Shown here: piece by piece, positions 43,915-60,996 of the stretch
How the letters are laid out: the number at the start of each line of letters is the position of its first letter
Position numbering within the stretch: the first letter of the stretch is position 1
Origin: Gemmatimonadota bacterium
GTDB lineage: Bacteria > Gemmatimonadota > Gemmatimonadetes > Longimicrobiales > Gaopeijiaceae
Reading direction: 5' to 3'
Length of the DNA: 61,744 nucleotides
Assembly (NCBI GenBank): GCA_039589315.1
Contig: JBDHHQ010000041.1
Span: 1-61,744, forward strand
Translations under genes and position numbers: made by a program
The notes under the pieces: model-generated
Database searches by the model: none
The model's input: only the letters and a program-made list of their open reading frames with translations
Told to the model about the DNA's origin: nothing

Positions 43915-44934
43915 ATGGCGCCGAGAACTTGGACATATGTCACGCTGACCGGATTGGTCGTCGCACTCGGTGTGGCGTGCCAGGACCAGTGGCCCGAGCC
44001 GCTGGACCCACAGCCGCAGGCCGCAAAGGGCTCATGCCCGCCGGGTCAGGTGAAGAAGGGGTGCACCAACGAACCCCCGACCGAGCCCCCCGCTGACCTC
44101 CACCTTCCCCCGGTGGTCGTCGATCAGATGATCTCGCCCCTCCGGCTGGGGCACACACCGATGGGGTGGATCCTTCTCACGGATTCGCGTCTGCAGATGG
44201 TCCTTCGCATCGACCCTGGGACGCTGCAGCCCATCGAAGGATTCGAGACGTCCGGGCGTCCGCTGGGTGTCACGGGGCTGGGTGAGTCGATCTTCGTCGG
44301 AAACGCCACCGACCAAACGATCGACGTCTACAGCGCCGCCGGTGGCGGCTTCACCACCACCTTCGGCCCGGGCGCCGTGCATTACCCGGCCGACCTCGAG
44401 GCCGACTTCAACGTGAATCTGATCTTCGCGCTGGACGGCGGGCGCCGCGACGTCCGCGTCTTCGACCCCGAGGGTCAGCTGATCAGCGTGATCTCGGGCC
44501 CCGGTACCGCCGACGATCAACTCGAGAATCCCACGGCCTTGGGCCTCGACCCCGTCCGGCAATGGGTCATGGTGAGCGACTATGGTTCCTTGGACGGCGG
44601 AATCGCGTCGCTGAAGATCTTCGGGTATGACGGCACCTTCCTGACCCGTGTCTCCGGTGAGGGCAGCTGCGGCATGCTGGGGTGCTCGGGAGGCTTCTCC
44701 CGGCCCCAGGGCGCCGAGGTGGACGCGGCAGGTCTGGTCTATCTACCCGACGCCTTGCTGGCGCAGGTGCTCGTCTTCGACCCGGCCACCTGGGATCAGA
44801 CGGACACATACGGCACCCGGGGGTTCCTGCGCGTTCCGACCGACGTCCGCGTCGACGACCTGGGCGACCTCTTCGTCGCCAGCAACAGAACCCGGGACGT
44901 CAAGGTCTTCCGTGGAGTGGGCGGCGCGCCATGA
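43915..44934 (+). CDS. NHL-repeat beta-propeller lipoprotein
   Basis: Lipobox GVAC; CPPGQVKKGC; NHL-like repeats (LENPTALGLDP, FSRPQGAEVDAAGLVYLPD, LRVPTDVRVDDLGDLFVAS); 339 aa. Confidence 0.85.
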   Translation: MAPRTWTYVTLTGLVVALGVACQDQWPEPLDPQPQAAKGSCPPGQVKKGCTNEPPTEPPADLHLPPVVVDQMISPLRLGHTPMGWILLTDSRLQMVLRIDPGTLQPIEGFETSGRPLGVTGLGESIFVGNATDQTIDVYSAAGGGFTTTFGPGAVHYPADLEADFNVNLIFALDGGRRDVRVFDPEGQLISVISGPGTADDQLENPTALGLDPVRQWVMVSDYGSLDGGIASLKIFGYDGTFLTRVSGEGSCGMLGCSGGFSRPQGAEVDAAGLVYLPDALLAQVLVFDPATWDQTDTYGTRGFLRVPTDVRVDDLGDLFVASNRTRDVKVFRGVGGAP

Positions 44935-46925
44935 GGACGCCGCTGCGTATCGGCTGGCTGCTGGTTGGTGCCATAGTGGGCGCGCCGCTGCTTCCCAGTG
45001 CCCCCAATCAGCTCGAGGCCCAGACTCCAAAGCACGGCTGCGACGTGTGCCACAACCTTCACGGAGGCAGCTACAGTGCGCTCTCCGACCACGCGGTGGC
45101 AGAGGAACTTTGTATCACCTGCCACGGTGACGGCGGCCCGCAGGGGGTGCCCAAGCAGGAAGGCATCCACGACGGGCTCAAGCACACCACACCCACGAGC
45201 TGCTGGGACTGTCACGACCATGAGGGTTCGGCGGGCTCCAACCTCTTCATGATCCCGGAGGTTCGGGAGGACCTGCCGCAGGGCGGCTCGGCCACCGTCA
45301 CGTTCCAGAACAACGCCGCTCAAGCGGACTTCATCGGTACGGAAGGGGTGTGCTACGTCTGCCACACGGACCCGGGGACCCAAGCCAACGGTTTCGCCGG
45401 CCACAACGGACCGGACGTCTGCACCAACTGCCACACCCACGATGGCGGCTTCCAGGGTGCCGGCGGCGCGTGCTCCGATTGCCACAACTCCACTCGGCTG
45501 GCTAGCGGCCACACTCACGCCCCTCGCCGGCAGGTCATAGGCACCGGTGGGGACTACGACCGCACGAGCGTGCACGTGACGAACGTGACCGACGACGACT
45601 GCGTGGTCTGCCACGACCAGCGCACCGACCACAGCACGGACGACCTCGGCGTGCTCCTGTACGACCACGACGATGGTACGTCCATCGAGCTCACGCACGA
45701 CGGTGATCCCAACACCAATTCCACGGAAGCGGCGAAGCTCGAGCAGTTCTGCCTCGGTTGCCACGGCGACGGAAGCGCCGACAAGACGGGTGTGACGTTC
45801 CCCACGGGCGCGGGCGCGGCGCAGCCGTTCACCGGCCTAGCGACGATACCGGGTGTGGATTCGTTGGTGTGGGCCGCCTCATCCCACGAGGGGAATCTCA
45901 CCGGCGGTTGCTACGGCGACGGTGCCTTCGGCTGCCACGGCAACGGCCACGGCTCCGAAAAGCTCGACCTACTGGCGCCGTCCAGCTTCGCGCCCGACCC
46001 CATCACCCTCTACGAGGAGGAAGAGGGCTTCTGCTTCGGCTGCCACGACGGAACGGTCACGGGCGCAGCCAACATCAAGGCGCAGTTCGACTCGACGACG
46101 ATCAACTGGTCGGAGAGCGAATGGGGGCTGAACCAGATCACCACATTCAACGATCGCCACGACGTCTCACACGCCGCATCGCGGGTGAGTGGTGCCAAGA
46201 TCGAGTGCGTGAACTGTCACCGACCCCACGCGGACAACAGCTCTCAAAAATACAACCCGGATCCGGACCCGGCGAACACGCCGCCCTCCTGGACCGGCCA
46301 GTCAGCGATGGATGCCTTCTGCGCGGACTGCCACGACGGGACGCTCCCTACCGGCGTCCAGGACCACACGGGCGGCCCCATGACCAACGTGGCCAATGCG
46401 TGGGCGAACGTGGACAGGATGGGGGCCGTGGCCGACATGGGCAGTGCCCTCCTACAGGAGTACATGCTGGTGGAGAAGACGGTGGGAGCCGGCGGCACGA
46501 ATGCGTCCAGCGATGGCGGGGGGGACATGGACCTGGTGTCGATCTCGAGCGAGTTCGGGACCAACATGGTCCTGAACTGCACGCAATGTCACCGTCCACA
46601 CCCCAAGGCGGCCGCCGACTGGCCCGGCGCCCACAAGTACGACCTTCTGAGCTTCCAGGATTCTATCCGCCTGAGCGACGGAAGAGCCATCGCCTATCCG
46701 ACGTCCGTCACGGAAGCGAGCATGGGCAGCCCGGCTGTCTACACCGGCGCGGTCTGGGACACGGGCCTAATCACGGACTCTAACGAGGCCGGCAGTTCGG
46801 ATCTGACCAAGGGCGGCTTCCTTTGCAACAACTGTCACGAAAAGGAGGCCATGAACGGCAAGACCGCTGGCTGCGCCACGGGCGGAGGGTGCCACTCACA
46901 CGGAGCCTCGATGACGGGAATGTAG
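44931..46925 (+). CDS. secreted multiheme cytochrome c (13 CxxCH plus CX7CH and CX5CH)
   Basis: ATGA overlap with the NHL gene; signal peptide LEA-Q; CDVCH, CITCH, CWDCH, CYVCH, CTNCH, CSDCH, CVVCH, CLGCH, CFGCH, CVNCH, CADCH, CTQCH, CNNCH, plus CYGDGAFGCH and CATGGGCH; 664 aa. Confidence 0.93.
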   Translation: MRTPLRIGWLLVGAIVGAPLLPSAPNQLEAQTPKHGCDVCHNLHGGSYSALSDHAVAEELCITCHGDGGPQGVPKQEGIHDGLKHTTPTSCWDCHDHEGSAGSNLFMIPEVREDLPQGGSATVTFQNNAAQADFIGTEGVCYVCHTDPGTQANGFAGHNGPDVCTNCHTHDGGFQGAGGACSDCHNSTRLASGHTHAPRRQVIGTGGDYDRTSVHVTNVTDDDCVVCHDQRTDHSTDDLGVLLYDHDDGTSIELTHDGDPNTNSTEAAKLEQFCLGCHGDGSADKTGVTFPTGAGAAQPFTGLATIPGVDSLVWAASSHEGNLTGGCYGDGAFGCHGNGHGSEKLDLLAPSSFAPDPITLYEEEEGFCFGCHDGTVTGAANIKAQFDSTTINWSESEWGLNQITTFNDRHDVSHAASRVSGAKIECVNCHRPHADNSSQKYNPDPDPANTPPSWTGQSAMDAFCADCHDGTLPTGVQDHTGGPMTNVANAWANVDRMGAVADMGSALLQEYMLVEKTVGAGGTNASSDGGGDMDLVSISSEFGTNMVLNCTQCHRPHPKAAADWPGAHKYDLLSFQDSIRLSDGRAIAYPTSVTEASMGSPAVYTGAVWDTGLITDSNEAGSSDLTKGGFLCNNCHEKEAMNGKTAGCATGGGCHSHGASMTGM

Positions 46926-50160: not shown

Positions 50161-50907
50161 ATGCATAGAAAGAAAGGCCACAGGACGCCTCTGATCATCA
50201 CCGTCGCGTTGGTCGGAAGCGCGCTTCCGACCATTGCGCACGGCCAATCCGTGAGCTCGGACCCCGGTCCGGTCGTCGATCGGGTCCTCGAAGCGTACGG
50301 GGGCGGCGACGCTGTTCGCTCCGTCGATTCGTACCGCCAAGAGGGCATGCTCGTGACGGCGCGGGGAGCGGCCCATGGGCAAGTGTATCGGATCTCCGAG
50401 GGTGCCAGCAAACTCAGCGTCCTCGTCGATTATCCCGGGCGTTCGGAGGTCCGGCTCCTGGAAGAGGATGTAGCCTGGCGCGGAACCAGCCCCGCGTCGC
50501 TCACCCCGGTCGAGGGTCCCCTGCAGGGAGCGATGGCGCTGCAGGCGGCTCGCATCGCGCTGCCTCGACTGCTCGATGAGCTTCGGGCGGAGACCGAGCT
50601 CGCAGGACCGTCCGATGAAGGCATGGCCGTTCTGGTGGTCCGCGTGGGTCAGGATCTCCTCCTCCGGGTGTACGTCGAAGAGGAGACGAACCTGATCGTT
50701 CGGACGGAGTCCGTCATCGAGTCCGCGCCGGCAGTGGTGGGGTTCGCCACGAACTACTCCGACCACCGGTCGGTCGACGGAGTGGTGTTCGCCTTCCGCG
50801 AGGAGACCTATGCCTCGGGTCGTCATACGGCCACCTCCATCATCGAGTCGGTAGAGCTCAACCCGGAGGGCCCCAGGGCGAGACTGCCGATCCCCCAGGG
50901 AAACTGA
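50161..50907 (+). CDS. hypothetical secreted protein (possible LolA-like fold), first gene of the nap operon
   Basis: Signal peptide AHG-Q; VLEAYGG, YSDHRSVDGVVFAFREE, VELNP; ends 4 nt before napD. Confidence 0.75.
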   Translation: MHRKKGHRTPLIITVALVGSALPTIAHGQSVSSDPGPVVDRVLEAYGGGDAVRSVDSYRQEGMLVTARGAAHGQVYRISEGASKLSVLVDYPGRSEVRLLEEDVAWRGTSPASLTPVEGPLQGAMALQAARIALPRLLDELRAETELAGPSDEGMAVLVVRVGQDLLLRVYVEEETNLIVRTESVIESAPAVVGFATNYSDHRSVDGVVFAFREETYASGRHTATSIIESVELNPEGPRARLPIPQGN

Positions 50908-50911
50908 AGCG

Positions 50912-51265
50912 ATGCCTGTTTGCAGCTATGTGGTCCTCCCGCGCCCGGGGGGCCAGGACGACCTCGCCAAAGAGCTCGCGAAGATCGAGGGTTGCGAGGT
51001 GGTTCGGGCCCAGAACGCCCGCGTGCTGCTGCTGGTCACGACGACCGACAGCTTCGACGCGGATGTCGAGCTGCGCCATGAGGTCGAGGCCCTGCCAGGC
51101 ATCGAGGCTTTGCTGATGACGTTCGGCGAGATCGACCCGGAAACCACCGTTGGAGACCCACTCTCGCGGGGTGCCGGCCGGCGGCGTCCAGCCGTGGGCG
51201 GCAAGCATCGTTCCGGCTCGACTCTGCCGCTCGCCGACACGGGCCAGGCGAGGAGACCTCGATGA
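50912..51265 (+). CDS. napD: NapD chaperone for NapA
   Basis: MPVCSYVVLPRPGGQDDLAKELAKIEGCEV...LLLVT...VEALPGI; small ferredoxin-fold pattern; overlaps the napA start (ATGA). Confidence 0.8.
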   Translation: MPVCSYVVLPRPGGQDDLAKELAKIEGCEVVRAQNARVLLLVTTTDSFDADVELRHEVEALPGIEALLMTFGEIDPETTVGDPLSRGAGRRRPAVGGKHRSGSTLPLADTGQARRPR

Positions 51266-53634
51266 CCGCCATGGACCGAAGGGAGTTCCTTTGGCGCTCG
51301 GCCCTCGCTTCGGCCGCTGCGGCCGCGGCCTCGATGGTGCCGGGGGTGGCATTCGGGTTGGATTGGTTGGAGGGTCAGGAGGGCGTAACCTGGCTCAAGG
51401 CGCCGTGTCGCTTTTGCGGCACCGGGTGCGGCTTGCTGATCGGCATCTCGGAGGGTCGGGCCGTCGGGGTGCGCGGCGATCCCGACTCCCCGGTGAACCG
51501 GGGACTTTGCTGCGTCAAAGGATACCACTCGGTACAGGCGCTCTACGGGAGCGATCGGATTCGACGCGCTCAAGTAAGACGAGGCGGCCGCCTGGTGGAC
51601 GTGCCCCTCTCCGAGGCACTGGACCTGGTGGCACGGCGGCTGGCGGCGACGGTCGAGGAGCACGGCAAGGACGCCGTGGCCATGTACGGGTCGGGGCAGT
51701 GGGCGATTCCCGATGCGTACGCGGCGTTGAAGCTCTTCAAGGGAGGGATCGGCACCAACAACGTCGAGGCGAACGCGCGCCTGTGCATGGCCAGCGCGGT
51801 CACCGGATTCATGTCGTCGTTCGGGCTCGACGAGCCCATGGGGTGCTACGAGGACATCGACCACGCCGATGTCTTCGTCCTGTGGGGCAACAACATGGCC
51901 GAGACGCATCCCATCCTGTTCTCGCGGATGCTGGAGCGCCGCCGGACCGACCCCGACGTCCGCATCATCGACCTGGCCACCCGTACCACGCGCACCAGCT
52001 ACGCGTCGGACCGGAGCGTGCTCTTCAATCCTCAGAGCGACCTGGCTCTGGCCAACGCCATCTGCCACGAGATCCTCCGGAGTGGCTGGGACCGGGAGGA
52101 CTTCGTCCGGAACCACGTGGCGTTCAAGTCGGGGCGGACGGGAATCGGCTACGGGCTGGACGACGAGGTCGCCGTCGCGGGCGAAGCCGAGCGAAGCCTC
52201 GCGGCGCTGCTCGGCTCGGCCGATGCCCTCGATGCGGACCGCAGTGGTTACGAGGCGTTCCTCGAGAGCTACACGCCTGACGGGGTGGCCGAGCTCACCG
52301 GGGTGCCGGCGGACGAGATCCGCTATCTGGCCTCACTCTACGGCGACCCCGCGAAGAAGGTCGTCTCGTTCTGGTGCATGGGGGTGAACCAGCATGTGCG
52401 CGGGACGTGGATGAACAACCTGATCTACAACATCCACCTGTTGGTGGGGAAGATATCCGAGCCTGGCAACGGCCCCTTCTCCCTCACCGGCCAACCCAGT
52501 GCTTGCGGGTCCGTGCGGGAGGTGGGAGCGCTCACCCACACACTCCCCCATGGCGACGTCACCAATGAAGACGCCCGTGCCCTGGCCGCGGAGATCTGGC
52601 AGGTCCCGGCGGAACGGATCCCGGAGCACCCGACGTACGACACGGTCGAGATGTTCCGTGCCCTGGATCGGGGGGACATCCGGTTCATGTGGATCCAGGC
52701 CACGAATCCAATGGTCTCGCTACCGAACCGCGACCGGTACCGTGAGGGGGCCTCGGGGGATGACCGCTTCATGGTGGTTTCCGACGTCTACCCAACGCCC
52801 ACTACGGACATCGCGGACGTAGTGCTGCCCTCCGCCATGTGGATCGAGCGGGAGGGCATGTTCGGCAACTCCGAGCGGCGGACGCAGCATTGGGAGCAGA
52901 TGCTGGAGCCGCCGGGCGATTGCATGAGCGATGCCTGGCAGATCATCCAGGTCGCTCGTCGAATGGGATTCGAGGCGCTCTTCCCCTGGAGAGAAGAGAG
53001 CCACATCGAGGAGATCTGGCGCGAGTACACCCGATTCCACGACCACCCGAGCCATCGCATGGCCTCGTACGAGGACCTCAGGACGCGCCCGGGAGTGATG
53101 TGGCCCTACGTGGAAGGGCGCGAGACACAGTGGCGATTCAACGCGCGGTATGATCCGGCGGCGGACCCGGACCGCGGCTTCGATTTCTACGGCCACCCCG
53201 ACCATCGGGCATGGATCTGGCTCCGTCCGTACGAGGCTGCTGCCGAAGCCCCGGACGAGGAGTATCCGTTCTGGCTTTCCACGGGGCGCGTGCTCGAGCA
53301 CTGGCACACGGGATCGCTCACGCGACGGATCCCCGTCCTCCATCAGGCCGTGCCCCACGCCTACGCGGAGATCAACGCCGAGGACGCCCGCGAGCTCGGC
53401 GTCCGGAACGGCGACAGGGTTCGGCTCGTGAGCCCGCGGGGCACCCTGGAGATCGAAGCTCGGGTGGATTATCGCGCGCAGCCGGCCCGCGGCCATGTGT
53501 TCGTGCCCTTCTTCGACGAGGCTCTCCTCATCAACAGGCTCACACTGGACGCGTACTGTCCCATCTCGCGGCAGCCGGACTACAAGAAATGTGCAGTCCG
53601 TGTCGAGCGTCTGGGTCGAGGGGGGAGTCCGTGA
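51262..53634 (+). CDS. napA: periplasmic nitrate reductase catalytic subunit
   Basis: Tat motif DRREFL; KAPCRFCGTGCG...NRGLCCVKGY; Mo-ligand NARLCMASA; DEPMGCYED, WGNNMAETHPILF, SLTGQPSACG, GRVLEHWHTGSLTRR, PDYKKCAV; 790 aa. Confidence 0.95.
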   Translation: MTAMDRREFLWRSALASAAAAAASMVPGVAFGLDWLEGQEGVTWLKAPCRFCGTGCGLLIGISEGRAVGVRGDPDSPVNRGLCCVKGYHSVQALYGSDRIRRAQVRRGGRLVDVPLSEALDLVARRLAATVEEHGKDAVAMYGSGQWAIPDAYAALKLFKGGIGTNNVEANARLCMASAVTGFMSSFGLDEPMGCYEDIDHADVFVLWGNNMAETHPILFSRMLERRRTDPDVRIIDLATRTTRTSYASDRSVLFNPQSDLALANAICHEILRSGWDREDFVRNHVAFKSGRTGIGYGLDDEVAVAGEAERSLAALLGSADALDADRSGYEAFLESYTPDGVAELTGVPADEIRYLASLYGDPAKKVVSFWCMGVNQHVRGTWMNNLIYNIHLLVGKISEPGNGPFSLTGQPSACGSVREVGALTHTLPHGDVTNEDARALAAEIWQVPAERIPEHPTYDTVEMFRALDRGDIRFMWIQATNPMVSLPNRDRYREGASGDDRFMVVSDVYPTPTTDIADVVLPSAMWIEREGMFGNSERRTQHWEQMLEPPGDCMSDAWQIIQVARRMGFEALFPWREESHIEEIWREYTRFHDHPSHRMASYEDLRTRPGVMWPYVEGRETQWRFNARYDPAADPDRGFDFYGHPDHRAWIWLRPYEAAAEAPDEEYPFWLSTGRVLEHWHTGSLTRRIPVLHQAVPHAYAEINAEDARELGVRNGDRVRLVSPRGTLEIEARVDYRAQPARGHVFVPFFDEALLINRLTLDAYCPISRQPDYKKCAVRVERLGRGGSP

Positions 53635-54362
53635 GGCCGGCCCGGTCGGCGGGCTATGGCCCGCTTCTCCGCCGCGTCGGCCTGATCGGCGTTACCGTCT
53701 TCGCCATGTTCCAGGGTGTCGTGATGTTACGCCCCGGCCCAGGGGAACGGGAGGACTTTCGATCCGTCGCCACAGTCGAGGCGCCGGATGCCGGACGACC
53801 GATCAGAGCGGAGGCCGGGGCATTCAGGGATCTACGCGAGGGACGGCTCAACGTCGGCGAAGCCGACGCTGCTCCCCACGTAGTCGTACCCACCCGCACG
53901 AACCGGAGTGGGCGCCGCGCGTACGACGGGGCGCCCCCGGTCATTCCCCATGACCTTGCCCCGGAGACCGAGCGCACACAGGACTGCGCGCCCTGCCACA
54001 CCTTTGGTGGCTACAATCCGGGCTTGAGGACATACTCGCCCCGGTCCCCCCATCCCGAGCTGGTAAACTGTCTTCAGTGCCACGTGCGTCCGGTCACCTC
54101 GGCCAGCTTCGTCGAATCCGACTGGGTGACGCCGGACGTACCCACATACGGTCTGGGTGGCACCATACTCGGGGCCCCGCCGGCTATTCCCCACGCCCTT
54201 CTGATGAGAGAGCACTGCGTCTCCTGCCATGGGGGGGCAGCGGCGGCACCGGACATCCGAACCGACCACCCCGAACGCTTCAACTGCCGGCAGTGTCATG
54301 CGGCCGTAGAAGCCCCCGGACAGCTCTTCTCGCGGCCACTGGGGCCCGGAGCGGATCGATGA
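53631..54362 (+). CDS. napB: NapB-like cytochrome c, internally duplicated (4 hemes)
   Basis: GTGA overlap; N-terminal TM; RRAYDGAPPVIPH..CAPCH..CLQCH, then GAPPAIPH..CVSCH..RFNCRQCH; 243 aa. Confidence 0.82.
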   Translation: MRPARSAGYGPLLRRVGLIGVTVFAMFQGVVMLRPGPGEREDFRSVATVEAPDAGRPIRAEAGAFRDLREGRLNVGEADAAPHVVVPTRTNRSGRRAYDGAPPVIPHDLAPETERTQDCAPCHTFGGYNPGLRTYSPRSPHPELVNCLQCHVRPVTSASFVESDWVTPDVPTYGLGGTILGAPPAIPHALLMREHCVSCHGGAAAAPDIRTDHPERFNCRQCHAAVEAPGQLFSRPLGPGADR

Positions 54363-55246
54363 GGCGCGCGCTGGATCCGGTCCGTGTTGCCCTGCTCATC
54401 GCCGGGCTAGGGTTGGCGGGCACCCTCGCCTGTAGGCCCGGCACGCCGCACGAGGCCCTGCCGGAGCTCGCCCATGGAGACGAGGCGGCGGAATCGGAAG
54501 ACCACGAAGCGGCCACCGTGTCACACGGCAGAGCAGAGCCCGGCGAAGCCGATGTCCATGATGAGGGGACCTCCGGAACGCACGGTGAGCCGGCAGACAA
54601 CTCGCTGTTGGCGGCCGCTGTTCGCGGCATCCCCTCGGCTCCGGCCGTCGGGTTCCAGGGGCCGGAGGGCACGCCGTTCTTCGTCGCCCTGCGGACCCCC
54701 GAGGTCGGTCACTTCCCGTGCGAGTCCTGCCACATCCGCCCCATCGGAGCGAAGAGCACCACCCTCCTGCAGATGCACGCCAATCGAGCCGAGCATCAGG
54801 GAGCAGCCCGCATCGACTGCAACGCCTGCCACAATCCGAGCAGTCCGGGCGCACTCGTGCTGGACTGTGCGGAGTGCCACGAGCGCGAAGGACTGCGGGA
54901 ATTGATGCCGAGCACGACGGCCCACCTCACAGTGCGGCTCAGCCACCCCGGTGGATACCTGCGTAACTGCTTCACATGTCATTCCCCAGAGAATCCTGGA
55001 TACCTGACCCTACAGGACGGGAGCCTGGCGAGCCTCGACGAGGCATACCGCCTCTGCGCGGGGTGTCACTACACGCAGGCGGACGACTGGGCGGGAGGTG
55101 CCCACGGCAAGCGGCTCGGGGGATGGCAGAGCGATCAAAGGGTCATCCTGAGCTGTACCGGCTGTCACAACCCCCACTCGCCCAAGTTCCCGATCCGGCG
55201 GCCCGTCACATTTCCCAAGATCGCCCGAAGGGAGGCGCCACGGTGA
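54359..55246 (+). CDS. hexaheme cytochrome c lipoprotein
   Basis: ATGA overlap; lipobox TLAC; acidic His-rich linker; CESCH, CNACH, CAECH, CFTCH, CAGCH, CTGCH; DWAGGAHGKRLGGW; 295 aa. Confidence 0.88.
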   Translation: MRRALDPVRVALLIAGLGLAGTLACRPGTPHEALPELAHGDEAAESEDHEAATVSHGRAEPGEADVHDEGTSGTHGEPADNSLLAAAVRGIPSAPAVGFQGPEGTPFFVALRTPEVGHFPCESCHIRPIGAKSTTLLQMHANRAEHQGAARIDCNACHNPSSPGALVLDCAECHEREGLRELMPSTTAHLTVRLSHPGGYLRNCFTCHSPENPGYLTLQDGSLASLDEAYRLCAGCHYTQADDWAGGAHGKRLGGWQSDQRVILSCTGCHNPHSPKFPIRRPVTFPKIARREAPR

Positions 55247-56394
55247 GCTCGGATGCCTCCGGCCCCTCCGAGGGCACCAAGCGAGAGCTGACGTTCGAGG
55301 ACGTCCTCCGGTGGCAAGCCATGTCCCGCATCGTCGAACGCTCGATGGTGGACCAGGGGGTCGAAGACGTGACCCGGTGTCCGCTCGGAGACGCAGTGGT
55401 TCCCCCAGATCCACCACGAGGCCCTGGCGAGCCCGACGTTGTGCCGGCGGAAGGTCCCGGGAGCCAACTCCTCGCCAAGCCCATGGGGCGAAGGCATGCG
55501 CTCAGCACGCTGTTCGGCACCCTGCTGGCGGGCACCCAAGCCGCGGCCGCATGCACCGATGTCGTGCCGGCGGACGGGACGAGAAGAGAACGACTCCTCC
55601 TCGAGTTCCAGGAGGTTCTGAAGGGCAACTTCCGCGTGATGTCGGACGACGAGAAGCGGGAGACGATCCAGCGGCTCGAGCGACTGTCAGAGCTGAGCCG
55701 GGGCGTCCACGTGGATCTCTCGGGGGAGGACGCCCAACAGGGAGTCCTCTTCGGTTACGCCTTCAACGTCTCCAAGTGCAAGGGCTACCGGGAGTGCGTG
55801 GCGGGGTGCGTGAGAGAGAACAACCAGGACCGGGCGAGCGGGATCCAGTACATCCGGATCTTCGAGATGGAGGGTGGAGAGGTCGACTTCGAAGAGGCAA
55901 CCGCCGAGTTCCAGCACGAGGTCCCTCGAGAGGACCACTTCTACCTCGGCACCCAGTGCTTCCAGTGCGCAAACCCCCCGTGCGTCGATGTATGTCCGGT
56001 TGCTGCCACATGGCAGGAGCCTGACGGCATCGTGGTGATCGACTATGACTGGTGCATCGGGTGCCGGTACTGCATTGCAGCGTGCCCCTACTGGGCGCGC
56101 CGATTCAACTGGGCGGAGCCGGCGGTCCCGGACGATGACGTGAACCCGAACCAGCACTACCTCGGCAATCGTCTGCGGAGGAAGGGATGCGTCGAGAAGT
56201 GCACCTTCTGCATCCAGCGGACCCGGAAAGGCCGGATGCCGGCGTGTGCGGAGGCCTGTCCGACGGGAGCCCGCATCTTCGGCAACCTCCTGGACCCGGA
56301 TTCGGAAATCCGATGGGTCCTGGAGAACAAGTCGGTCTTTCGTCTCAAGGAAGATCTCGGGACTGAGCCCCGCTTCTGGTACTTCATGGATTGA
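55243..56394 (+). CDS. NrfC/DmsB-family 4Fe-4S electron-transfer protein
   Basis: CKGYRECVAGC, CFQCANPPCVDVCP, CIGCRYCIAACPY, EKCTFC...PACAEACPTGARIFG, LGTEPRFWY; GTGA overlap; start uncertain (alternatives 55321, 55483). Confidence 0.9.
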   Translation: MSSDASGPSEGTKRELTFEDVLRWQAMSRIVERSMVDQGVEDVTRCPLGDAVVPPDPPRGPGEPDVVPAEGPGSQLLAKPMGRRHALSTLFGTLLAGTQAAAACTDVVPADGTRRERLLLEFQEVLKGNFRVMSDDEKRETIQRLERLSELSRGVHVDLSGEDAQQGVLFGYAFNVSKCKGYRECVAGCVRENNQDRASGIQYIRIFEMEGGEVDFEEATAEFQHEVPREDHFYLGTQCFQCANPPCVDVCPVAATWQEPDGIVVIDYDWCIGCRYCIAACPYWARRFNWAEPAVPDDDVNPNQHYLGNRLRRKGCVEKCTFCIQRTRKGRMPACAEACPTGARIFGNLLDPDSEIRWVLENKSVFRLKEDLGTEPRFWYFMD

Positions 56395-56410
56395 CGCGCT
56401 CGATACGCCG

Positions 56411-57667
56411 ATGAAACACGTCAGGGCCTTCTTGTTATCCGCTTTGGACGCCGCGACCAGCGGTGGGCGTCTCTATCACGTTTGGATGGGCTGCCTTTCG
56501 GCAGTCATGGTCTTCGGCGGATACGCCTACTTCATCCAGTTGCGGGACGGTCTGCAGGTCACCGGCATGACCGATCACGTCAGCTGGGGCCTGTACATCT
56601 CGAACTTCACCTTTCTCGTGGGCATGGCGGCCGCCGCGGTCATGCTGGTGCTTCCCGCCTACGTTCTGCACGACGTGGATTTCAGCAAGGCCGTGCTGAT
56701 CGGTGAAGGGCTCGCGGTCGCGGCCCTGACCATGTGTCTGGGCTTCGTCGTTGTGGATCTGGGGAGCCCAATGCGATCCTGGCACCTGACGCCCGGGATC
56801 GGCTTCCTGAACTTCCCCAGGTCTCTCCTGGCTTGGGACGTCCTGGTTCTCAACGGATACCTGGCGCTCAACCTGGGAATCCCGCTCTACATCCTGTTCA
56901 CCCACTACATGGGACGTAAGCCCAACCCCAGGCGGTACGTCCCCTTCGTGTACCTCTCGGTCTTCTGGGCGGTGAGCATCCACATGGTCACCGCCTTTCT
57001 CCTCGCCGGGCTGCCGGCCAGGCCGTTCTGGAACAGCTCGCTCCTCGGTCCGCGCTTCCTGGCCTCGGCGTTCGCGGCGGGACCGTGCTTCATCATCCTC
57101 ATGCTCATCGTGGTCCGATCCAAGACACCCTACCACGTGGAGGACGCGGCCATCTCCAAGCTGGCGATGATCGCCACCGTGGCGGCACAGGTGAACCTGG
57201 TCATGATCGGATCCGAGATCTTCAAGGAGTTCTACTTCCCGACGCACCACAGCCTCAGCGCGCAGTACCTGTTCTTCGGACTGCACGGACATGACGCTCT
57301 CGTCGGTTGGATCCGGATCTCGATCGGGCTCAACATCCTGGCCACGGGCGTGCTCATGATCCACCCGTTGCGAAAGGACACGCGATGGCTGACTGCGGCC
57401 TGCCTCGTGATGTTCGTCGCCATCTGGATGGACAAGGGCATGGGGCTGGTCATCCCCGGCTTCGTGCCGTCGCCCCTGGGCGAGATCGTCGAGTACAGGC
57501 CGACGTGGGTCGAGTTCGCGGTCACCGCGGGGATCTGGGCCTTCGGTCTCTTCGTGTTCACGGTGCTCGTGCGGGTGGCTCTTCCCATCGAGCTCGGGGA
57601 GAGCCGGAGCCCCTACCTCGAAAGGCGTCCAGGGGCTGATCGATCGACCGCGGCCATAGGTGTGTAG
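56411..57667 (+). CDS. NrfD/PsrC-family integral membrane quinol-interacting subunit (DsrP/HmcC-like)
   Basis: TGMTDHVSWGLYISNFTFLVGMAAAAVML, VDLGSP, SLLAWDVLVLNGY, AVSIHMVTAFL, PRFLASAFAAGP, DKGMGLVIPGF, EYRPTWVE; about 10 TM; 418 aa. Confidence 0.92.
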   Translation: MKHVRAFLLSALDAATSGGRLYHVWMGCLSAVMVFGGYAYFIQLRDGLQVTGMTDHVSWGLYISNFTFLVGMAAAAVMLVLPAYVLHDVDFSKAVLIGEGLAVAALTMCLGFVVVDLGSPMRSWHLTPGIGFLNFPRSLLAWDVLVLNGYLALNLGIPLYILFTHYMGRKPNPRRYVPFVYLSVFWAVSIHMVTAFLLAGLPARPFWNSSLLGPRFLASAFAAGPCFIILMLIVVRSKTPYHVEDAAISKLAMIATVAAQVNLVMIGSEIFKEFYFPTHHSLSAQYLFFGLHGHDALVGWIRISIGLNILATGVLMIHPLRKDTRWLTAACLVMFVAIWMDKGMGLVIPGFVPSPLGEIVEYRPTWVEFAVTAGIWAFGLFVFTVLVRVALPIELGESRSPYLERRPGADRSTAAIGV

Positions 57668-57838: not shown

Positions 57839-58579
57839 TCAGGAGGCTGTCGGGCGCAACTGGCTGACGGCCTGATCCACCACCGGGCCGCGTGACAGGG
57901 CCGGCGAGGCGGACCCGACGTTGAGGCGGTAGCCCTGGAAGATCAGGCAGAGACCCAGGAACTCGCCGACGTACAGAACCTCGACGTGCCCCATGCGGGT
58001 GGCAGCGCCTCCGATGGCCGGAAGCAGCGCTCCCACCGCGATGAGCGTGTTGCCCCAGGCCCGGTCTCTCGTACGCGGGTTCCGTCCGTAGCGCCAGGCC
58101 GAAAGCGCGGCGCCGCCCACCAGGAACACGAGTGCGTACACGTTGATCCACGGGCTGAAGAGCCGCACCCACTGCCATTCCATGACGCTGCCGGAGAGCC
58201 GGTACGTTTCCACCAGGGCGTGGTTGATGGGCGTCAGAATCACGCACACCGAGGCGATCGCGATGAACGGGATCAACACGGCGGTGAGTCGGTTCGCGGT
58301 CTTCCGGCTGAACAGCAGGTAGACCGTGCCCTGCGCCAGGGGCGCACCGCCGAGCAGGGCGCCCGCGATGTACCAGGACCGGAACGACAGCTCGTTCCAG
58401 CCGAACAGGGTCACCGACGCCTCGGTCAGCGTTCCCAGGCCATAGATGAAGATGCCAGCCGCCCACCAGGCCAGATGAGGTCCCGAGCGCCGCTCCAGGT
58501 ATCTGCGAGTGACGACGATGCCGAACCAGAGGGCCAGGAGCGTCGTTACGATGGGAACATAGTGGACGGGCTGTGCCAC
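57839..58579 (-). CDS. hypothetical integral membrane protein (6-7 TM)
   Basis: HLAWWAAGIFIYGLGTLTE, WYIAGALLGGAPLAQGTVYLL, GNTLIAVGALLPAIGG; 246 aa; downstream of the TonB receptor on the same strand. Confidence 0.8.
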   Translation of the reverse strand: MAQPVHYVPIVTTLLALWFGIVVTRRYLERRSGPHLAWWAAGIFIYGLGTLTEASVTLFGWNELSFRSWYIAGALLGGAPLAQGTVYLLFSRKTANRLTAVLIPFIAIASVCVILTPINHALVETYRLSGSVMEWQWVRLFSPWINVYALVFLVGGAALSAWRYGRNPRTRDRAWGNTLIAVGALLPAIGGAATRMGHVEVLYVGEFLGLCLIFQGYRLNVGSASPALSRGPVVDQAVSQLRPTAS

Positions 58580-58628: not shown

Positions 58629-58695
58629 GAGTCCGGCGATGACCCGGCGGGCCGGTCCCCGGGGAAGGACCCTGCCCGCCGGCATCGGCCGACTC
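58629..58695 (-). other. long imperfect GC-rich hairpin directly after the TonB receptor stop
   Basis: Arms GAGTC..CGATG..CCGGCGGGC..GGTCC and GGACC..GCCCGCCGG..CATCG..GACTC; no clear U-tract. Confidence 0.45.
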
Positions 58696-60904
58696 AGAAC
58701 ACGAGCTGGTACGAAAGCCAGAGGTTCCGCTTGGCCTCCGGACGGAAGAAGCTCGCGTTGGCGAACTCGGCATAGAGCTCGTTCGTGAGGTTCGCCAAGG
58801 TGACTCCGACGTGGTGCTCGATCCCGCTGCCCGACTGGCTCAGCCGGATACCGCCGCGCACGTCATGCACGGTGAACGCCGGGAGGACAGCGCCGATGGG
58901 GCTGGTGCCCAGATCGACGTCCTTCTGGTCGCCATTGTGCCGCACACCGTACTCCGCCCAGAACAGGTTCGTCGGGTGATCGTACCGGAATGCACCGGTG
59001 ATCTTGGTCGCGAACGTCTCGCCTACGGGGTTGTTGGGCTCGTGGACGTCCTCCGAGTCCAGGTAGGTGTAGGAGCCGTCCAGCGAGAATCCGGATGGCA
59101 GAAAGGCCGTCGCAGACAACTCCACCCCACGGTAGAGCAGCTCGTCGACATTCACGTTGTGATACGCCGGGATCCCGTTGACTTCCTCTCCCGTGGGAGC
59201 GATGCGGATCCCGTCGTAGATGGTGTTCCGGAACACGAACGCCTCGGCAGCGAGCCAACGACTCCGGAACCGCGCGCCCAGGTCCACGTTGAGGCTCGTC
59301 TCGGCCACCAGGTCGGGGTTGCTGAGCTGGTAGCCCGAGCCTTCGGGGGTCGGTCCCTCGAAGAACCACTCGATGATGTTCGGGGCGCGGAAGGCACTGC
59401 CGACGGAGCCCACCAGGCTCAGGCCATCCACCACTTCGTAGATCGCGTTGAGCGCGCCCACCGCGGTCCGGTCCTCCTTCGTGGTCAGGTCACCCTCGAA
59501 GTTCGCCGTCGGGCGCGTCTCGGCCCTGATGTCCTGGACACGTCCTCCCAGGATCAGCGTCCCGCGACGGAGCACCTGGAACTCCCCCTGCGCGAAGGCG
59601 CCGATGGAACGGTAGACGGCATTCGGCACGCTCGGCGTCGCGCTCGAGTCCACCATGGGAGGTCCGAACCCGTGGATGTTCATGACGCTGCGGTCGGTGT
59701 TCTGGGAGTCGTCCCGGAACATGTCCACCCCATACGTCACCAGAATCGAGGGATGGGCGAGCTTCTTGGCCTCCAGGCGGAAGCCGAACGTGGACAGGTC
59801 GGTGAAGTTGTTGCTCGACAGCTCCATCCCCGCGCCTGGAGGCGCGTCGGGGCCGAACGAGGTAGCGATGTCCATGGTGAGGCCCCGCTCGTTCCGCTGG
59901 AGGTAGCTCACGAAGTCCAGACGGTCGGCCACGGCCCATCCCATGTCTGTCACACCGTAACCCACGGTGCCCTTGATGAAGTCCTGGTTGGGATAGCGAA
60001 TCCTCACCTCTGCCTGGTCCGGCGCATACGCCAGGGGGTCGACGAACCCGAAGCCCGCGTCCGAAGCGGTATACGACTCCAGCTTGCCCCAGACGGCGTT
60101 TCGGCGAGACAGCTGATAACCCAGGCGGAAGTCCAGGCTGCGGTCCTGGACGCCGGTGTCGAAGACCGGGGTGTCATCGACCAGCTCGATGTCGCCGAAG
60201 GTGCCCGACGGTGCCTCGTAGGATCCGGCGTCCCTCATGCTGAAGCCCGCCTGCAGGTCGAGATTGCCGAAGCGACCGAAGAATCGGCCGATGCCTCGAT
60301 GCTGGGTCTCGACGGAGCCGTACCGGTAACCGACCGATCCGTGGACACCGTCCTGCACGGGCGTGCGCGTGATCATGTTCACGACGCCGCCGATGGCATC
60401 CGTCCCGTAGAGCACGGACGACGGACCCCGTACCACCTCCACGCGCTGAATGCTGGTGACGTCGACGAGCGCTGGAATCTCGCCGAAGTCCTGTTGGCGG
60501 CGAGAGTTGTTCAGGCGAAGCCCGTCGGCGAGCAGCAGGATCCGCTGACCCCGCTGGCCACGGATCGTCGGGCGCGTCTGGTTGACACCGACTCCATTGA
60601 CGTCCAGTCCGGGTTGAGACCGGAATAGATCAGAGGTCGAGTTGGGCATCTTGCGGGCGATGAGGGTCTGATCCATGACCAGCACCGGGGCAGGTGCCGT
60701 GAAGACCTCACGCGGCGACCGGGTAGCCGTCACGGTGATCTCGTCGACCGCGAACACCACCGTGTCTTCTCGAGCCTCCTCTTCTGTGGCCTGTTGGGGT
60801 GGGTTGGCTTGTGCAGACAGGGCGTGGCTGGGGAGCAGGAGGAGCAAGGTCAGGGTCGTAAGGGCGAGTACCGCGGAGCTGGTGCTGTCCGCCGGTCTGA
60901 CCAT
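58694..60904 (-). CDS. TonB-dependent outer-membrane receptor
   Basis: Signal peptide; TonB box DEITVTATR; PTIRG, RVEVVRGPSSVLYGTDAIGGVVNMIT plug; FRAP...NPDL; C-terminal Phe (YQLVF); 736 aa. Confidence 0.94.
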   Translation of the reverse strand: MVRPADSTSSAVLALTTLTLLLLLPSHALSAQANPPQQATEEEAREDTVVFAVDEITVTATRSPREVFTAPAPVLVMDQTLIARKMPNSTSDLFRSQPGLDVNGVGVNQTRPTIRGQRGQRILLLADGLRLNNSRRQQDFGEIPALVDVTSIQRVEVVRGPSSVLYGTDAIGGVVNMITRTPVQDGVHGSVGYRYGSVETQHRGIGRFFGRFGNLDLQAGFSMRDAGSYEAPSGTFGDIELVDDTPVFDTGVQDRSLDFRLGYQLSRRNAVWGKLESYTASDAGFGFVDPLAYAPDQAEVRIRYPNQDFIKGTVGYGVTDMGWAVADRLDFVSYLQRNERGLTMDIATSFGPDAPPGAGMELSSNNFTDLSTFGFRLEAKKLAHPSILVTYGVDMFRDDSQNTDRSVMNIHGFGPPMVDSSATPSVPNAVYRSIGAFAQGEFQVLRRGTLILGGRVQDIRAETRPTANFEGDLTTKEDRTAVGALNAIYEVVDGLSLVGSVGSAFRAPNIIEWFFEGPTPEGSGYQLSNPDLVAETSLNVDLGARFRSRWLAAEAFVFRNTIYDGIRIAPTGEEVNGIPAYHNVNVDELLYRGVELSATAFLPSGFSLDGSYTYLDSEDVHEPNNPVGETFATKITGAFRYDHPTNLFWAEYGVRHNGDQKDVDLGTSPIGAVLPAFTVHDVRGGIRLSQSGSGIEHHVGVTLANLTNELYAEFANASFFRPEAKRNLWLSYQLVF

Positions 60905-60970
60905 CGGATCACCTCTCTTCTGAATAACCAGCGTCATCGAATCGGCATCTTCTTGCCGGACACGTTTACG

Positions 60971-60996
60971 GGCACGCATATCGCATACAGCGTGCC
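60971..60996. promoter_or_regulatory. symmetric site reading as a sigma54 -24/-12 motif on both strands
   Basis: Plus GGCACGCATATCGC (60971-60984) and minus GGCACGCTGTATGC (60996-60983); both are GG-N10-GC and share the same GC; dyad GGCACGC-N12-GCGTGCC. Confidence 0.55.

Follow-up and report, generated by a model that had tools for sequence, protein, structure and literature searches.

In a Gemmatimonadota bacterium, a periplasmic nitrate reductase (Nap) gene set was found joined to a module whose Fe-S and membrane subunits resemble DsrO and DsrP. The DNA analysed (the window) is the 61,744-nucleotide (nt) contig JBDHHQ010000041.1 of assembly GCA_039589315.1, a genome estimated to be 95% complete and 5% contaminated, and positions 50161–57667 were those studied. 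On comparative grounds we consider it rather probable that this operon specifies a periplasmic nitrate reductase that is intact and, with it, a DsrOP-like module which would oxidise quinol and hand the electrons to NapA along a predicted chain of Fe-S clusters and hemes, with probably no charge moved across the membrane. The narrower proposal, that the module would replace NapC or NapGH as a dedicated quinol-to-nitrate chain, is well supported because the gene linkage is near-perfect, the clades of NapA and of the membrane subunit match, and canonical donors are lacking. The same evidence supports the dedicated quinol-to-nitrate chain in the proposal of an earlier note on this DNA.

Gene linkage, phylogeny and canonical donors

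The seven genes of the cluster (Table 1) lie on one strand, with 4-nt overlaps (ATGA or GTGA) at four junctions and gaps of 4 and 16 nt at the other two, an arrangement already described in the earlier note and confirmed by the open reading frame coordinates. Family searches likewise confirmed the absence of napC, napG, napH and napF from the cluster, while a scan for promoters and terminators gave no signal above chance.

A species-genome scan undertaken with the membrane protein returned the best 78 of 142 relatives, a selection biased to close relatives; at least 3 kb of upstream DNA was present at 63 of these loci, the remaining 15 being too short, and in 63/63 a napA, a tetraheme, a multiheme and an Fe-S gene preceded the membrane gene in that order. 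The 65 loci at which napA could be seen were distributed among Thermodesulfobacteriota (27), Gemmatimonadota (16), Myxococcota (4), Bacteroidota (2), and a single locus each from Acidobacteriota, Pseudomonadota and Planctomycetota; the other 13 had no assignment. The six-gene layout recurs in at least seven phyla, as the earlier note had suspected of similar clusters. A reading of the operon as the specialty of a little-studied lineage was not supported, the operon being common in Desulfobulbales and Flavobacteriaceae. Among the cultured carriers are Tamlana sp. I1 (L105) and Desulfogranum mediterraneum (L053).

Among 201 genomes of Flavobacteriaceae, the family of locus L105, napA was present in 39 and the DsrP-like gene in 38, in each case on the same contig and strand as napA and 2430–3068 nt downstream of it; the 39th napA was broken by a contig end, and the DsrP-like gene was found in none of the 162 other genomes. 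All eight of the loci opened contained the six genes, one of them with a stop inside napA. A 251-genome sample across the phylum of L105 yielded no carrier beyond the centre genome, so the operon is patchy in that phylum. Equivalent data from 201 Gemmatimonadota genomes located the membrane-subunit clade in 14, with a napA-like gene upstream in 13 and a cut contig in the other. The seven other napA genes in that sample had either a Rieske/cytochrome b/octaheme layout (five, Pfam being checked for one) or a classical-type NapA (two), and the clade membrane gene was absent from every genome that carried them. As kin are not independent, all these counts overstate the linkage, and they serve to describe conservation, with no statistical test attached.

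The membrane protein scored 402.9 with the DsrP model NF045798 (cut-off 350), 54 bits with the QrcD model NF041784 (cut-off 570) and 19 bits with the NrfD model TIGR03148; Nap-less modules also pass NF045798, and the DsrP model is therefore not specific. A careful tree built on 33 selected rows grouped the Nap-linked membrane subunits in a single clade (100/99), with the DsrP proteins encoded in dsrMKJOP in a separate clade (100/100) and those of Nap-less tetraheme-O-P modules also apart; the cable-bacterium-type DsrPh and the Nap clade occupied separate branches of an unresolved fork outside canonical DsrP. Larger quick trees, built from a set without a QrcD reference, agreed with the Nap clade and placed ActC-, HybB- and other NrfD-family rows outside it. 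The module-linked NapAs also formed a single clade (support 100, quick tree). The NrfC-like/NrfD-like pair of the earlier note stood at the level of the broad families (Fer4_11 and PF03916) but scored closest to DsrO and DsrP, the membrane protein being DsrP-like and not NrfD or QrcD.

Searches of the window's own genome for canonical donors, called for in that note, detected no napG or napH above cut-off and no full-length napC, and tblastn with NrfH, NapH-like, NrfA and DsrMKJ queries taken from fetched loci gave no match. NapC-family matches were confined to incomplete N-terminal domains in two proteins encoded on other contigs, one with 16 hemes and the other with 17. Profiles of the module found a single copy in this genome, that of the nap operon. 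Among 28 other carriers, NapH exceeded the cut-off in none, and a full-length NapC-family gene was present in nine, in no case beside nap; two Desulfobulbales carriers had an additional nap of the NapM type, its NapH-like gene scoring under the cut-off. The 16/17-heme proteins, each with an N-terminal membrane helix and the partial NapC-like domain, lead multiheme clusters on contigs C115 (L026) and C12 (L025), and contigs C41 and C115 share no overlap at their ends.

A further line of evidence came from a Tor system. In locus L184 the tetraheme core is fused to a C-terminal TorC domain and stands in for the NapC-like domain of TorC, which is absent, and the fusion gene sits between a partial torA-like gene and DsrO-like and DsrP-like genes (L184:117–4825; G263, P0121–P0125), so that the L184 system apparently uses the same module. 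The loss of the NapC-like domain from such a fusion lends independent support to the module as a substitute for a NapC-type quinol dehydrogenase. The fusion was found in five protein clusters, L184 alone providing its gene context, and a sister position of a Tor-linked clade to the Nap clade, suggested by the quick tree (87), did not resolve in the careful tree.

Subunits, electron route and energy conservation

NapA passed the model NF010055 (926.9; cut-off 904) and fell narrowly under TIGR01706 (900.4; cut-off 930.55). Alignment to the enzymes of Escherichia coli (2nya) and Cupriavidus necator (3ml1) indicated that the twin-arginine translocation (Tat) signal, the CxxCxxxC [4Fe-4S] motif, the conserved Lys, the Mo-ligand Cys175–Met176 and the substrate-site motifs are all kept, and the active site is, to judge from these motifs, intact. 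A branch of Gemmatimonadota in which NapA is without the Mo-ligand Cys was nested inside the module-linked NapA clade, the window lying outside that branch. A napD gene was present in 46 of the 54 scan loci with enough upstream DNA, and all eight loci without it had a NapA of the Cys-less kind. Cys-less NapA with no napD seen, often beside 16–18-heme genes, was recorded at L032, L074, L079, L088, L090, L099, L101, L107, L140, L141, L196, L197 and L199.

The tetraheme protein had been described as a tetraheme NapB; its four CxxCH motifs and its homology to NapB are borne out, but it is not a plain NapB. Its two halves are 42% identical over 52 amino acids (E 5e-12), a result indicative of tandem duplication of a NapB-like diheme unit, so that the NapB-homologous unit is present twice, although the NapB model PF03892 matches the first half only. 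The profile of the tetraheme family matched solved NapB structures (3ml1_B at 6e-7, 1ogy_B and 1jni). The second cytochrome, described previously as a hexaheme lipoprotein, does have six CxxCH motifs, and its putative lipobox Cys25 was read from the sequence by consensus; six hemes are a local variant, however: the conserved core has four, and the further two belong to an insertion restricted to the window and its close relatives L067, L073 and L076, other loci carrying four. The core profile also matched tetrahemes of Nap-less tetraheme-O-P modules (E 1e-41 to 1e-22).

The Fe-S protein was nearest to DsrO, scoring 189 with NF045797, just under the cut-off of 200. In its first motif the second Cys is replaced by Tyr or Phe, giving CxG(Y/F)xxCxxxC in 53/53 Nap-linked rows, whereas CxGCxxC is kept in 8/9 of the Nap-less modules checked; three [4Fe-4S] clusters and one three-Cys cluster are predicted. 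The usual ligation pattern of DmsB-type proteins would place the three-Cys cluster at the cytochrome-facing end.

With these components in place, the DsrP-like subunit would oxidise quinol on its periplasmic face, and the electrons would then pass through the clusters of the DsrO-like protein, the lipoprotein tetra- or hexaheme, and the second and then the first diheme unit of the duplicated NapB, from which they would reach the [4Fe-4S] cluster and the Mo site of NapA for reducing nitrate to nitrite. The step would close a redox loop as NapC does, with proton-motive force made where the quinone is reduced. We infer the order of carriers, the direction of flow, the type of quinone and electroneutrality, as we do co-transcription of the genes and physical contacts between their products.

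A number of observations weigh against this scheme. Desulfosediminicola flagellatus IMCC35005, which carries the whole operon (L066), is recorded as not reducing nitrate under the condition given (3 mM nitrate, acetate; PMC8497536). The Cys-less Gemmatimonadota branch (10 loci) still keeps the module, which can therefore persist without nitrate reduction. The window's own genome also encodes NarGHI, an alternative complex III (ACIII)-like cluster and the two 16/17-heme proteins whose N-terminal domain is in part NapC-like, so that another electron route is conceivable, and MqnC was not found in it, which bears on the type of quinone. Finally, E99, Y150, H191, E269 and D341–K342 of the membrane subunit are kept (E122, Y176, H247, E326 and E394–R395 in ActC), which leaves pumping some probability.

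Such observations bring two other roles into consideration. In the first, the module would act as a general quinol-to-periplasm outlet for other sinks, for example the neighbouring 16-heme conduit, while NapA would be fed by ACIII or by the NapC-domain 16/17-heme proteins. The same module does occur without nap in many genomes, a C115-type 16-heme NapC-domain cluster directly follows the nap-operon membrane gene in G001, a genome of the same genus, the Cys-less NapA branch often has the module beside 16–18-heme genes, and the Nap of Campylobacter is fed through Qcr (PMC6195509). The absence of a 16-heme gene from the eight Flavobacteriaceae loci and from the Desulfobulbales scan loci, where the six genes stay intact, together with the failure to find the module without napA in any of the 201 Flavobacteriaceae genomes and the junction overlaps that bind it to napA, nevertheless renders this role improbable. 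In the second, the complex would chiefly use some other oxyanion or serve as a sink for redox balance, in preference to nitrate respiration. Although one carrier strain was negative for nitrate in the test mentioned above, NapA enzymes are able to reduce chlorate and perchlorate (PMC12769810), and the window's own genome has NarGHI while neither NirK nor NrfA was found in it, all of the NapA active-site motifs checked equal those of solved nitrate reductases, and we regard such a role as very improbable indeed.

For the quinol-to-nitrate chain, the remaining question is whether the quinol oxidation step conserves energy. The membrane subunit has 10 hydrophobic segments, and its AlphaFold2 model, computed from an alignment (predicted local distance difference test 85.8), gave ActC (6btm_C) as the best fold match (Z 36.1, root-mean-square deviation 4.4, 382 aligned); the match lists contained no DsrP or QrcD chain, and residues were mapped onto those proteins by published numbering. 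At the quinol site, D116, S138 and D143 align with His139, Ser164 and Asp169 of ActC, D116 being found in 44/45 clade rows and the other two in 45/45 (23 of these rows being close homologs of unseen gene context). On this alignment the positions are conserved as in DsrP, and E368 may correspond to DsrP Glu359, by numbering offset only. The structure of DsrP from Archaeoglobus fulgidus, which has an Asp at the ActC-His position, is described as having menadiol bound and oxidised and a path by which protons exit into the periplasm, and it offers no clear ground for pumping (bioRxiv 10.64898/2026.08.25.746951).

Inspection of the proton-channel residues, as the earlier note had advised, demonstrated that the ActC cytoplasmic-channel residues H97, T100, S103, R114 and R119 (a set taken from Table 2 of PMC8076601) align to A74, V77, V80, F91 and L96, five polar positions having thus become hydrophobic while others are kept. 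Since DsrP releases the protons of quinol to the periplasm and these five positions are hydrophobic here, an oxidation step that is electroneutral, like that of NapC, is most likely the default; NapA is also periplasmic, so that no charge would cross the membrane unless the membrane subunit pumps. Qrc is electrogenic by reducing menaquinone with cytoplasmic protons and was shown not to pump (PMC6303296), a mechanism that runs in the opposite direction, the nap module having to oxidise quinol. The Qcr-fed Nap of Campylobacter (PMC6195509) is a precedent for an electrogenic Nap.

The same wiring could instead include a DsrP-like subunit that pumps cytoplasmic protons, thereby making periplasmic nitrate reduction energy-conserving. 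Menaquinol (−75 mV) and nitrate (+420 mV; PMC6195509) lie some 0.5 V apart, the membrane subunit has the 10-helix fold of ActC, and the Nap clade shows no variation at the intramembrane residues E99, Y150, H191, E269 and K342, which match positions of the half-channel proposed for DsrP and ActC (PMC8076601, Table 2); the authors of the DsrMKJOP structure, moreover, leave pumping open as a possible advantage of DsrP (bioRxiv 10.64898/2026.08.25.746951). By way of contrast, that structure offers no clear basis for vectorial transport, the five channel positions are hydrophobic, Qrc does not pump (PMC6303296), and Lutibacter profundi, a member of the Flavobacteriaceae with NapAB, converts nitrate to nitrite with no anaerobic growth on nitrate (PMC5219744), a phenotype consistent with a functional Nap that conserves no energy, provided that the operon of L. 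profundi is of the module type, as the pattern in the family would suggest. Pumping is on balance unlikely, and the energy conservation suggested in the earlier note is weakly supported and doubtful.

Features of the locus and neighbouring genes

Table 1. Genes of the nap cluster in the window, with the evidence for each assignment
Feature	Positions	Strand	Evidence
Secreted 248-amino-acid protein, accessory	50161..50907	+	4 nt upstream of napD; no Pfam/NCBIfam match
napD, NapA chaperone	50912..51265	+	PF03927, 32.3 bits (cut-off 28)
napA, Tat-exported Mo-bisPGD nitrate reductase	51262..53634	+	NF010055, above cut-off
Tetraheme cytochrome c, two tandem NapB-like diheme units, N-terminal hydrophobic segment	53631..54362	+	4 CxxCH; PF03892, halves compared
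Predicted lipoprotein cytochrome c, hexaheme	54359..55246	+	6 CxxCH; alignments
DsrO-like Fe-S protein, internal twin-Arg motif	55243..56394	+	Fer4_11; NF045797, below cut-off
DsrP-like 10-helix NrfD-family membrane protein, predicted quinol-oxidising subunit	56411..57667	+	NrfD PF03916; NF045798, above cut-off

For the Fe-S protein, a start at GTG 55243 and one at ATG 55483 are both possible. The hexaheme and the secreted protein, both listed in the earlier note, were not supported as defining parts of the system: the hexaheme was rejected as a defining subunit on account of the four hemes at other loci, and the secreted protein was rejected as a subunit since a homolog lies near the operon in just one other fetched locus (L073). 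The secreted protein is accessory and outside the conserved core; its atlas neighbours (score 0.97) are clusters whose automatic names are lipoprotein-sorting-like or hypothetical.

Some 3 kb upstream of the operon, the window encodes a cytochrome with 13 CxxCH motifs (44682–46925, +), preceded by an NHL-like beta-propeller protein (43915–44934, +) whose start is lipoprotein-like. Downstream, on the other strand, are a 246-amino-acid membrane protein (57839–58579, −) without a Pfam or NCBIfam match, of which a paralog of 65% identity lies on contig C13, and a TonB-dependent receptor (58694–60979, −) for which heme/hemoglobin receptor models gave the highest scores, all under cut-off. Elsewhere in the same genome there are two further NrfD-family molybdoenzyme clusters and a NosZ-like gene below cut-off.

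Several other loci merit record. A 719-amino-acid protein with 8 CxxCH motifs and no family match is encoded directly upstream of napD in L020 (7019–9178; G008). A second nap cluster, L161:3736–12900 (G032), comprises a tetraheme, a napA (37%), a NapH-like gene, a tetraheme, an Fe-S gene, a different NrfD-family protein and an octaheme, and is possibly a joined nitrate/nitrite ammonification locus. L204, L205 and L211 form a module clade that is Nap-less yet has the same three-Cys motif; the module there precedes a gene of ~430 amino acids, of multi-rhodanese type in L204, and the beginning of a molybdoenzyme gene, and may serve sulfur reduction, while in three Desulfobulbales loci (L160, L183 and L185) an 11-heme cytochrome follows a tetraheme-O-P module.

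Relation to known systems and significance

Canonical Nap operons are grouped as napEDABC, napDAGHB, napCMADGH and napAGHBFLD in a 2026 review (PMC13223375), and the present layout is missing from the four types as given there. With these it shares NapD, a NapA with intact catalytic motifs and a NapB-homologous cytochrome, but there is no NapC, NapG, NapH, NapF or NapM, NapB is duplicated to four hemes, and tetra/hexaheme, DsrO-like and DsrP-like genes follow. Classification as a canonical operon was rejected, neither NapC nor NapGH having been found as quinol dehydrogenase. A nap region resembling that of cable bacteria occurs in five Gemmatimonadota genomes (L143–L147) in the order Rieske, cytochrome b, octaheme, napA and duplicated napB; it shares a related NapA and the same duplicated NapB, but there a Rieske/cytochrome b pair fills the role held here by the DsrOP-like module.

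The module itself is related to the DsrOhPh-tetrahaem (DsrOhPhCyt) locus, reported without an assigned function from cable bacteria, some Desulfobulbales, and Gamma- and Betaproteobacteria (PMC13047784, section 11). Loci with the published TMH1-O-P-tetrahaem order (L180–L182), which stand for the published proteins in this comparison, matched all three module proteins of the window, and both systems have a homologous trio of tetraheme, DsrO-like and DsrP-like proteins outside dsrMKJOP; by homology the module is a member of this wider family. It differs in its separate clade, in 35–37% identity of the membrane subunit, in gene order, in having no TMH1, in its three-Cys first Fe-S motif and in a terminal reductase encoded in the same operon.

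With the DsrJOP part of DsrMKJOP the module shares a passing DsrP score, the conserved Asp at the ActC-His position, other DsrP residues and a DsrO-like partner. The genome, however, is without dsrM, dsrK and dsrJ, no dsrA was found in it, and electrons would here stay periplasmic and not cross to DsrK; membership of DsrMKJOP was rejected, there being no dsrMKJ with the genes and no branching with canonical DsrP. NrfABCD, QrcABCD and ACIII have in common with it the multiheme, Fe-S and NrfD-family architecture and the ActC fold. NrfABCD was rejected on the 10 segments as against the eight helices of NrfD, the low TIGR03148 score and the lack of a full-length NrfA in the window's own genome; QrcABCD on the QrcD score, far below cut-off, and on a NapA that is intact where QrcB is cofactor-less; and ACIII on Asp in place of His139, the five hydrophobic channel residues and the absence of ActB and ActF from the operon. 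ActB, like QrcB, is cofactor-less whereas the Mo enzyme here is catalytically intact, and the operon encodes no further membrane subunit of the ActF kind, ACIII genes lying elsewhere in the genome. As 10-helix members of the family are described as accompanying non-standard catalytic subunits (PMC6303296), the nap operon is an exception to that rule.

No description of the operon was found in the full-text literature, a coverage that excludes subscription reviews, and the accessible part of an NrfD-family survey (PMC8076601) mentions neither a Nap-linked complex nor napA. In two metagenome-assembled Planctomycetota genomes (PMC10732223), Nap and Nxr genes have a multiheme/Fe-S/NrfD/ActD cluster downstream, which is a possible passing sighting of the operon, and DsrO homolog clades of unclear function are mentioned elsewhere (PMC10504309). 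The operon is real, widespread and apparently undescribed, while every family that contributes to it is already known.

Two consequences concern annotation. The module genes pass the DsrP model, or carry polysulfide reductase or HybB-like labels, in genomes without a Dsr pathway, and surveys would score the Cys-less NapA of Gemmatimonadota as a nitrate reductase. A bolder view, that of a membrane-anchored quinol:nitrate complex with a proton-pumping DsrP-like subunit, would provide many Flavobacteriaceae, Desulfobulbales and Gemmatimonadota with an energy-conserving Nap and make the module a swappable proton-pumping quinol oxidase for Nap and Tor; we hold it to be doubtful, but if true the DsrOhPh-tetrahaem module would gain its first defined job. 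The operon is a Nap architecture outside the four types of the review, yet one that accounts for 38/39 napA genes in the Flavobacteriaceae sample and recurs in Desulfobulbales and Gemmatimonadota. Through it, a module family called function-unknown in papers of 2026 gains a likely function, the oxidation of quinol on behalf of a periplasmic reductase. With donor and acceptor sites both periplasmic, any charge movement would have to come from the membrane subunit, so that the complex, for which cultured carriers exist, would offer a clean test of pumping by DsrP.

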